Positions 39,194 through 39,232 of a stretch of 64,000 nucleotides of DNA are shown piece by piece. The stretch is from a virus. The stretch covers positions 64,001 through 128,000 of the IMG/VR virus record IMGVR_UViG_3300032213_002070. One strand, written 5' to 3'. The translations under genes and the position numbers were made by a program. The notes under the pieces are model-generated. The model saw only the letters and a program-made list of their open reading frames with translations, ran no database searches and had not been told where the DNA came from. Every line of letters begins with the position of its first letter. Positions within the stretch are counted from its first letter, which is position 1.

Positions 39194-39228
39194 CTAAGAC
39201 TGTGTCGTAACTATAACAGTCCTAAGGT
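39194..39228 (-). other. 3' UTR hairpin containing a 23-nt sequence complementary to 23S rRNA helix 69
   Basis: Plus strand 39206-39228 CGTAACTATAACAGTCCTAAGGT versus 23S rRNA CGTAACTATAACGGTCCTAAGGT (E. coli ~1909-1931, from memory): 22/23. Confidence 0.7.
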
Positions 39229-39232
39229 TCTA

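Follow-up and report, generated by a model that had tools for sequence, protein, structure and literature searches.

A hairpin with complementarity to helix 69 of 23S rRNA in the 3' untranslated region of a phage capsid transcript and its recurrence in other uncultured phages

The capsid gene and its 3' untranslated region

The window analyzed here, a stretch of 64,000 nucleotides, belongs to a 145-kb IMG/VR virus record with an estimated completeness of 69%. On its minus strand, at 39233-40288, it carries the gene for a major capsid protein of 351 amino acids (Pfam Phage_capsid_4, E 7.8e-17; PHROG major head protein). With the capsid proteins of the 0305phi8-36 group of Bacillus jumbo phages, this protein shares 37-44% identity. 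According to the list of open reading frames, the genes around the element described below are encoded on the minus strand. The product of the next gene downstream (38327-39106, minus strand, 259 amino acids) gave no match to Pfam or PHROG. Two genes upstream of the capsid gene, a protein of 635 amino acids (41133-43040, minus strand) contains a ferritin-like domain (PF00210, E 3.5e-11), which is unusual within a head-assembly module.

The capsid reading frame is closed by TAA at 39235-39233, and a second in-frame stop, TAG, follows at 39232-39230. Read along the minus strand, the mRNA continues as GAA AUG UAA UAG AA CCUUAGG ACU GUUAUAGUUAC G ACACAGUCUUAG AAAGUA and then enters an intrinsic terminator (39157-39187, minus strand), which is composed of the stem-loop GGGGGCAGC-GAAA-GCUGCCCC at 39187-39167 and the T tract UUAUUUUUUU at 39166-39157. 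The element of interest begins 5 nt past the first capsid stop and extends up to this terminator, and its seed-like blocks are invariant. The layout is that of 3'-UTR-derived small RNAs, i.e. a conserved seed placed between the stop codon and the terminator of the mRNA itself. The original prediction, made from the sequence of this stretch alone, had placed the element after the tandem TAA TAG stops and ahead of the terminator, and the sequence bears this out.

Outside the element, the promoter-like motif GTTACTAGT (39137-39145, minus strand) lies ahead of the next gene and marks the end of the capsid transcription unit. A (G/A)TTACTA motif is retained 3' of the terminator in related contigs. 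In the form (G/A)TTACTA(T/G)(A/T) it is also seen about 30-45 nt upstream of several minus-strand starts in the window (61613, 30564, 25093, 18119 and 6414), and it is probably a promoter element of the phage itself, perhaps for late genes. No tRNA genes were found in the 145-kb record with ARAGORN, and thus no phage tRNA that reads four bases is visible in the available part of the genome. A link between the element and +1 recoding had been proposed as well. We found no evidence for it; the motif is present in other phage lineages and contexts, and nothing was seen to connect it with CGG sites.

Complementarity to helix 69, fold and conservation

Helix 69 of 23S rRNA forms the intersubunit bridge B2a, acts in decoding, termination and recycling and is among the most conserved RNA sites. 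The 23-mer ACCUUAGGACUGUUAUAGUUACG at 39228-39206 of the minus strand (plus-strand match 39206-39228) is complementary to C1909-U1931 of the E. coli 23S rRNA at 22 of 23 positions. At the one exception an mRNA U stands opposite G1922, which gives a G.U wobble, so that the antisense match with a single wobble-compatible difference claimed beforehand holds for the E. coli sequence. In the E. coli 23S gene (L396) the target stretch reads ...GGCCGTAACTATAACGGTCCTAAGGTAGCGAAATTCC..., and the phage strand is antisense to the rRNA. When the E. coli 23S sequence was compared with the whole 145-kb record, the element was the top match (E 0.001) and the only outlier, followed by 14-mers with an E value of 1.3. 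The target stretch is almost wholly in upper case in the Rfam bacterial LSU consensus and is thus conserved across bacteria. A comparison with helix 69 of the actual host had been proposed as a check; by the Rfam consensus, the target is near-universal in bacteria.

The complementary tract comprises two conserved blocks and a variable linker, all on the minus strand. Block 1, CCUUAGG (39221-39227), is complementary to 23S C1924-G1930 and mostly forms the base of the 5' arm of a hairpin. The linker, which is ACU here (39218-39220), faces 23S G1921-U1923, which form the stem of helix 69 on its 3' side, and takes part in the upper stem of the hairpin. Block 2, GUUAUAGUUAC (39207-39217), is the exact complement of 23S G1910-C1920, which is the helix 69 loop together with the pairs that close it. 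This block is presented by the loop of the hairpin, and G39206 carries the match on to C1909. The whole hairpin (39194-39225) is built from a 5' arm at 39225-39217, a 14-nt loop at 39216-39203 and a 3' arm at 39202-39194 (CAGUCUUAG), with a stem of 9 bp at whose base CUUAGG is paired with CCUAAG. The computed folding energy is -9.5 kcal/mol for the hairpin alone and -35.8 kcal/mol (z -6.2) for the 89-nt 3' UTR. The predicted hairpin, whose loop holds the helix 69 complement, is therefore present; in the element, a stem based on CUUAGG/CCUAAG carries the sequence complementary to the helix 69 loop.

Relatives of the phage were collected by a scan of IMG/VR with the capsid protein, which yielded 550 sequences. 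The best 80 of these 550 (89-100% identical) were taken, and the 72 among them that had usable sequence past the capsid stop served as an unbiased sample. Conservation in relatives had been set beforehand as a test, and all 72 checkable contigs keep the element, in 26 variants. CCUUAGG and GUUAUAGUUAC are invariant or nearly so in this sample, whereas terminators and flanks diverge; in an alignment of 71 sequences, all 10 invariant and all 4 near-invariant columns fall within blocks 1 and 2. The linker is 2-4 nt long in the 72 unbiased loci and reaches 5 nt in a wider set selected by pattern; it occurs in many sequences and covaries with the 3' arm of the hairpin itself. The 23-nt pairing of the original prediction thus stands as a complementarity, but the conserved unit is not a contiguous 23-nt duplex; it consists of CCUUAGG and GUUAUAGUUAC(G) only.

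The order of stop codon, element, terminator, promoter-like motif and next gene is kept in the relatives with no insertion, and every one of them has a G+C-rich hairpin followed by a T run at the position of the terminator, with differing sequence. Each genome has a single hairpin copy: one copy in hairpin context is present in G000, and G002-G005 contain one exact copy each. Judged by this comparison of sequences, chance is excluded by conservation. The motif is absent 3' of the capsid gene in cultured relatives from Bacillus, Moorella and Acinetobacter.

The fold is supported by covariation, which had been named as a further point to look for after the capsid gene of related phages and was found: linker and inner stem covary with the 3' arm. 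In an alignment fitted to a covariance model, which leans towards the stem, 95% of the cells are paired, 5 of the 9 pairs are changed on both sides and none of 500 shuffles reaches the score. Constrained folding of 71 distinct variants, which is independent of that alignment, returned the same stem in most of them. In the upper stem AU, GC, CG and UA pairs all occur across the variants. Many pairs of the stem are G.U pairs, which would be A-C mismatches on the opposite strand, arguing for the mRNA-sense RNA as the molecule that folds.

The position of the blocks was compared with the structure of their putative target. In the Rfam consensus structure, 1906-1911 are paired with 1919-1924 (helix 69), whereas 1912-1918 and most of 1925-1944 are unpaired. 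The two conserved blocks face segments of the 23S rRNA that are unpaired in this consensus (the loop and the 3' junction), and the variable linker faces the stem strand G1921-U1923. This pattern fits a partner that would be a folded 23S rRNA with the helix 69 stem closed. At the 18 core positions of the unbiased samples, the wobble-compatible substitutions C to U and A to G are seen at 5 of the 7 positions where they are possible, as compared to 1 of 11 for U to C and G to A (Fisher p about 0.013 by our own calculation, on few positions), and the single wobble-incompatible substitution is compensated inside the hairpin. Such a bias would be expected for an RNA that pairs with a fixed RNA partner and not for a protein or DNA site. 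The calculated energy of the duplex with 23S 1900-1945 is -40.6 kcal/mol, as compared to -9.5 and -10 kcal/mol, respectively, for the hairpin and the target when each is folded separately; the 11-bp loop helix by itself amounts to -11.4 kcal/mol.

Recurrence of the motif in other phage contexts

IMG/VR was scanned with a pattern for the two blocks. A pattern of 16 bases yields many chance matches, and a control scan with the reversed pattern was as saturated as the real one. Raw pattern counts were therefore set aside, and only families with additional matching bases and a consistent context were used; singleton matches in coding DNA were discarded.

In a second capsid lineage, the two blocks are found in the same hairpin architecture right after the stop codon of an unrelated capsid gene at 43 of 64 loci. 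The capsid protein of this lineage is 53% identical to capsid proteins of Streptomyces phages and shows no BLAST similarity to the capsid protein of the window. A variant of its loop, GUUGUAGUUAC, could still pair with U1917 by wobble, and some members retain CUUAGG with a different 3' partner. The element is missing from the other 21 of the 64 loci. Together with the cultured relatives that lack it, these members indicate that it is dispensable in some phages.

Another type is found at at least 32 loci, with variants of its architecture at at least 6 more. Here a covarying first hairpin is followed by (Y)UUAGGACC-GUUAUAGUUAACGG and by a terminator with the loop (A)GUUCGCUAC. All five loci of this type that were checked have a ribonucleotide reductase gene upstream, hence the designation reductase type used in the following. 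The second block of these RNAs, UUCGCUAC, lies in the terminator loop and is antisense to 23S nucleotides around 1931-1938; the order of the blocks is thus permuted relative to the 23S rRNA. Individual loci are L223, L174, L213, L345, L376 and L387, in addition to about 30 more in IMG/VR. Block 1 is retained also in those members of the second capsid lineage where its 3' partner differs, and in the reductase type, where it is probably single-stranded.

The reductase-type RNAs and the element of the window have in common that the complement of the helix 69 loop is presented in the loop of a hairpin on the transcribed strand, near an intrinsic terminator, once per genome and in uncultured aquatic phages. 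They differ in that the window has a single hairpin directly after the capsid stop, in which CCUUAGG is paired within its own stem and which is not accompanied by a second loop antisense to nucleotides around 1931-1941. Such a loop, (A)UUCGCUAC, is not present at the locus, where the terminator loop is GAAA, nor was a second anti-23S block found elsewhere in this genome. None of the three genomic copies of TTCGCTAC that were examined adjoins a terminator-like hairpin. From the GAAA loop and the position of these copies, the element of the window appears as a reduced, one-loop variant.

Among the matches listed, there is also one locus with both blocks in a terminase 3' UTR and one locus in a tRNA array where the 20-nt motif forms the loop of a short hairpin. 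Furthermore, L190:11690-11860 and L180:3590-3760 contain a free-standing gene for a small RNA, which has an extended -10 box as well as a terminator. The only parts conserved between these two loci are the terminator and a 32-nt tract antisense to 23S nucleotides around 1911-1942, and by BLAST this tract has a match in the 23S rDNA of each of the 5426 E. coli genomes. Wherever the orientation could be determined, the antisense sequence lies on the strand of the upstream gene or tRNAs.

A different arrangement is seen at L493:6530-6700, in an Iamiaceae genome bin, and at L203/L197. There, ACCUUAGG(N)GUUAUAGUUAC is enclosed in a long stem, with a ribosome-binding site and a small gene directly downstream, and in L493 the promoter-like GTTACTATA precedes the enclosed motif. 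This form is a possible 5' leader version of the element. Another RNA from tRNA arrays, containing CUUAGGAUGUUAUAGUUAC, was not counted as support, as the match may be fortuitous and its frequency due to the abundance of one phage family. It is 82-131 nt long, has a covarying closing stem of 12 bp, lies between phage tRNA genes (L181:1769-1852, L170:1582-1663, L189:6695-6823 and similar loci), belongs to no Rfam family and may be unrelated.

In the bacterial genome collection, the element was found only on phage-like contigs in an Acidibacter genome bin, besides the similar motif in the Iamiaceae bin, and these matches are too weak to name a host. Among cultured phages, a megablast search with the locus gave no match, the reductase-type element was not detected, and a search with the 20-mer returned only fragments of host 23S rRNA. 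In phage PA5oct, the complement of the helix 69 loop was located at three sites only, and at none of them is it combined with a hairpin and terminator as in the window. With Rfam, the window gave no match at the gathering threshold, and only tRNAs were matched in 14 loci carrying the motif; sub-threshold matches in a 131-nt stretch were far below the cut-offs and mostly covered the terminator hairpin.

Proposed pairing with the large ribosomal subunit and alternative explanations

We lean towards regarding the 3' hairpin of the capsid transcript as the smallest representative, with one hairpin, of a broader and apparently undescribed group of phage RNAs antisense to helix 69 and its 3' flank. 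The phage probably uses the hairpin to pair with the large ribosomal subunit of its host or with a precursor of it. The binding of ribosomes had already been suggested by the original prediction, and strand bias, wobble-biased substitutions, recurrence and the facing of the blocks to unpaired 23S segments make it the best-supported reading at the level of sequence comparison.

Other explanations account for parts of these data. The hairpin might serve as an operator, bound by an RNA-binding protein of phage or host which controls the stability, localisation or translation of the capsid mRNA, with the likeness to 23S rRNA going back to captured rDNA. Its invariant loop and sequence-conserved stem base recall coat-protein or boxB-type operators, and the 3' UTR of the most abundant late mRNA would be a suitable location. 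We consider this unlikely, however, as the same 18 bases appear in different structural settings (stem and loop, a different stem, entirely in the loop, or with a probably single-stranded 5' block) and as their carriers have unrelated capsid genes, so that all of these phages would need to have the same protein in common. Neither the second 23S-antisense block of the reductase-type RNAs nor the wobble bias of the substitutions is expected for recognition by a protein. Seed-type conservation as in 3'-UTR-derived sRNAs would also be compatible with an antisense regulator that is directed against another RNA resembling helix 69, i.e. a host or phage mRNA, and not against the ribosome. A complementary 11-mer is indeed present at 32811-32821 (plus strand) in the mRNA of a 1114-aa gene (ORF 32687-36031), and another copy of GTTATAGTTAC is located at G000:517-527 (minus strand). 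Yet the site in the 1114-aa gene is missing from 4 of 5 related genomes that keep the element and is common only to the closest relative, and both additional copies are therefore probably due to chance; they do not lie in a hairpin-plus-terminator context, and about 0.2 copies per genome are expected by chance according to our own estimate. No conserved partner was found inside the phage genome. Moreover, the different lineages would need a common mRNA target, and the 23S rRNA is the only known universal carrier of the 18 bases, which makes this explanation quite improbable.

The chances are slimmer still for a terminator accessory, that is, a second hairpin that guards the 3' end from exonucleases or aids termination and whose sequence is frozen for reasons other than rRNA. 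The element is always located a few bases upstream of an intrinsic terminator, and the 3' UTR as a whole is very stable, but protection would require the stem and not an invariant 11-nt loop, the adjoining terminators diverge freely, and a chance identity of 18 bases with the most conserved part of the 23S rRNA has a probability of less than 1e-6 per motif by our own estimate. Finally, the DNA itself could be the functional entity, as a relic, target or decoy of a homing endonuclease of 23S rDNA (I-CeuI region) or as an attachment-like site. The rDNA of helices 69-70 is described as a hot spot for homing endonucleases (PMC2602781), and on the plus strand TAACTATAACaGTCCTAAGGT corresponds to most of the left and central I-CeuI site. 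The full site TAACTATAACGGTCCTAAGGTAGCGA is not attained, however, since the plus strand reads TAACTATAACaGTCCTAAGGTtctatt and the right part (AGCGAA) is absent. The spacing of the blocks ranges from 2 to 4 nt among the unbiased relatives, none of the relatives has an endonuclease or integrase gene or an intron next to the motif, it is always the transcribed strand that carries the motif, and the G.U pairs of the stem can form on one strand only. The homing-site relic or decoy that had been offered as an alternative in the original prediction is thus disfavoured, and we regard a function at the DNA level as highly improbable.

For pairing with helix 69, the following course can be envisaged, with the element acting either as part of the mRNA or after its release as a 3'-terminal fragment. 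The loop GUUAUAGUUAC would initially form a kissing complex with the helix 69 loop (G1910-C1920) of a host large subunit or late precursor. Strand exchange could ensue, in which CCUUAGG would leave its own 3' arm and pair with 23S C1924-G1930, while opposite the variable linker the stem of helix 69 would not be opened. We infer the 23S rRNA as the target, and from it conceivable effects, namely tethering or sequestering of the 50S subunit, a block of subunit joining, or interference with late 50S maturation.

In mature ribosomes, U1915 is a m3-pseudouridine, which forms no Watson-Crick pair, and RlmH methylates the assembled 70S ribosome (PMC5430550). The invariant loop nucleotide A39212 would face this blocked position in mature subunits, which favours an immature target or a split kissing helix. 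This points to a large subunit before its first assembly into a 70S ribosome, or to a precursor, as the possible partner. That helix 69 can be reached by antisense molecules is indicated by an anti-helix-69 PNA, which inhibits the growth of E. coli (Kulik et al. 2017, as cited in PMC7038079). It resembles the phage element in being an oligomer complementary to helix 69 of the 23S rRNA; it is, however, man-made and linear with a structure-invading backbone, and is uninformative on a natural RNA hairpin. We tentatively extend this to a broader proposal, which seems possible to us if rather doubtful: many unrelated aquatic phages may independently carry RNAs, either small ones or modules of 3' UTRs, that pair with helix 69 and the junction next to it and are selective for new or immature large subunits, which would be captured, prevented from joining or stopped in maturation. 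The selectivity is proposed because the m3-pseudouridine at 1915 would block pairing in ribosomes that are already 70S. Sequestration of helix 69 should, on the other hand, block subunit joining, and a benefit of this to the phage late in infection is not obvious.

We found no published description of such an RNA in the literature, nor of a natural RNA of a bacterial virus that base-pairs with helix 69. What is new is helix 69 of 23S rRNA as the proposed target, the use of phage 3' UTRs and small RNAs as carriers and how widely these carriers are spread. In its mode of action, the element would resemble known motifs for RNA-rRNA pairing and antisense RNAs that present a loop. If the pairing is real, it would be an RNA-based route by which phages act on host ribosomes and, if the reading with immature subunits is true, a natural RNA-based viral control of the large ribosomal subunit of the host. 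As nearly all bacteria share the 23S target, a host-independent tool could then be derived from the element as well, and the pairing would account for the fixation of 18 non-coding bases in hundreds of uncultured phage genomes beside diverging terminators.

Loop-presenting antisense RNAs are exemplified by CopA/CopT of plasmid R1 and RNA I/RNA II of ColE1, in which cis-encoded antisense RNAs are directed against a transcript of their own plasmid. The phage element would share with them the loop-loop kissing followed by a spread into the stems, as well as the nature of a short structured untranslated RNA; it differs in its proposed partner, the rRNA of the host, and in its position within an mRNA 3' UTR. 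Pairing between mRNA and rRNA is known from the Shine-Dalgarno sequence, and among viruses from the calicivirus TURBS, which pair with helix 26 of 18S rRNA, and from 3' translation enhancers of the BYDV type with complementarity to 18S rRNA; the T-shaped element of turnip crinkle virus binds the 60S subunit. As in the phages, a short conserved tract of a transcript has complementarity to a conserved site of the ribosome or binds it, and some of these tracts lie in 3' UTRs. To our knowledge, however, viral pairing with rRNA concerns the small subunit, and we know of no such motif among TURBS, plant 3' enhancers and Shine-Dalgarno sequences that is directed against helix 69 or 23S rRNA at all, or that comes from a phage. 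TURBS moreover precede a restart codon, whereas the phage element lies past the stop with a strong terminator behind it, and the next gene is preceded by a promoter-like motif of its own. Finally, the s2m of coronaviruses and astroviruses is a rigorously conserved 3' UTR element that is found across unrelated virus families and has been proposed to mimic an rRNA fold (PMC539059). Like the element described here, it is proposed to act on the translation machinery of the host (PMC539059); hosts and viruses differ, and s2m would imitate an rRNA fold whereas the phage hairpin is antisense to rRNA.
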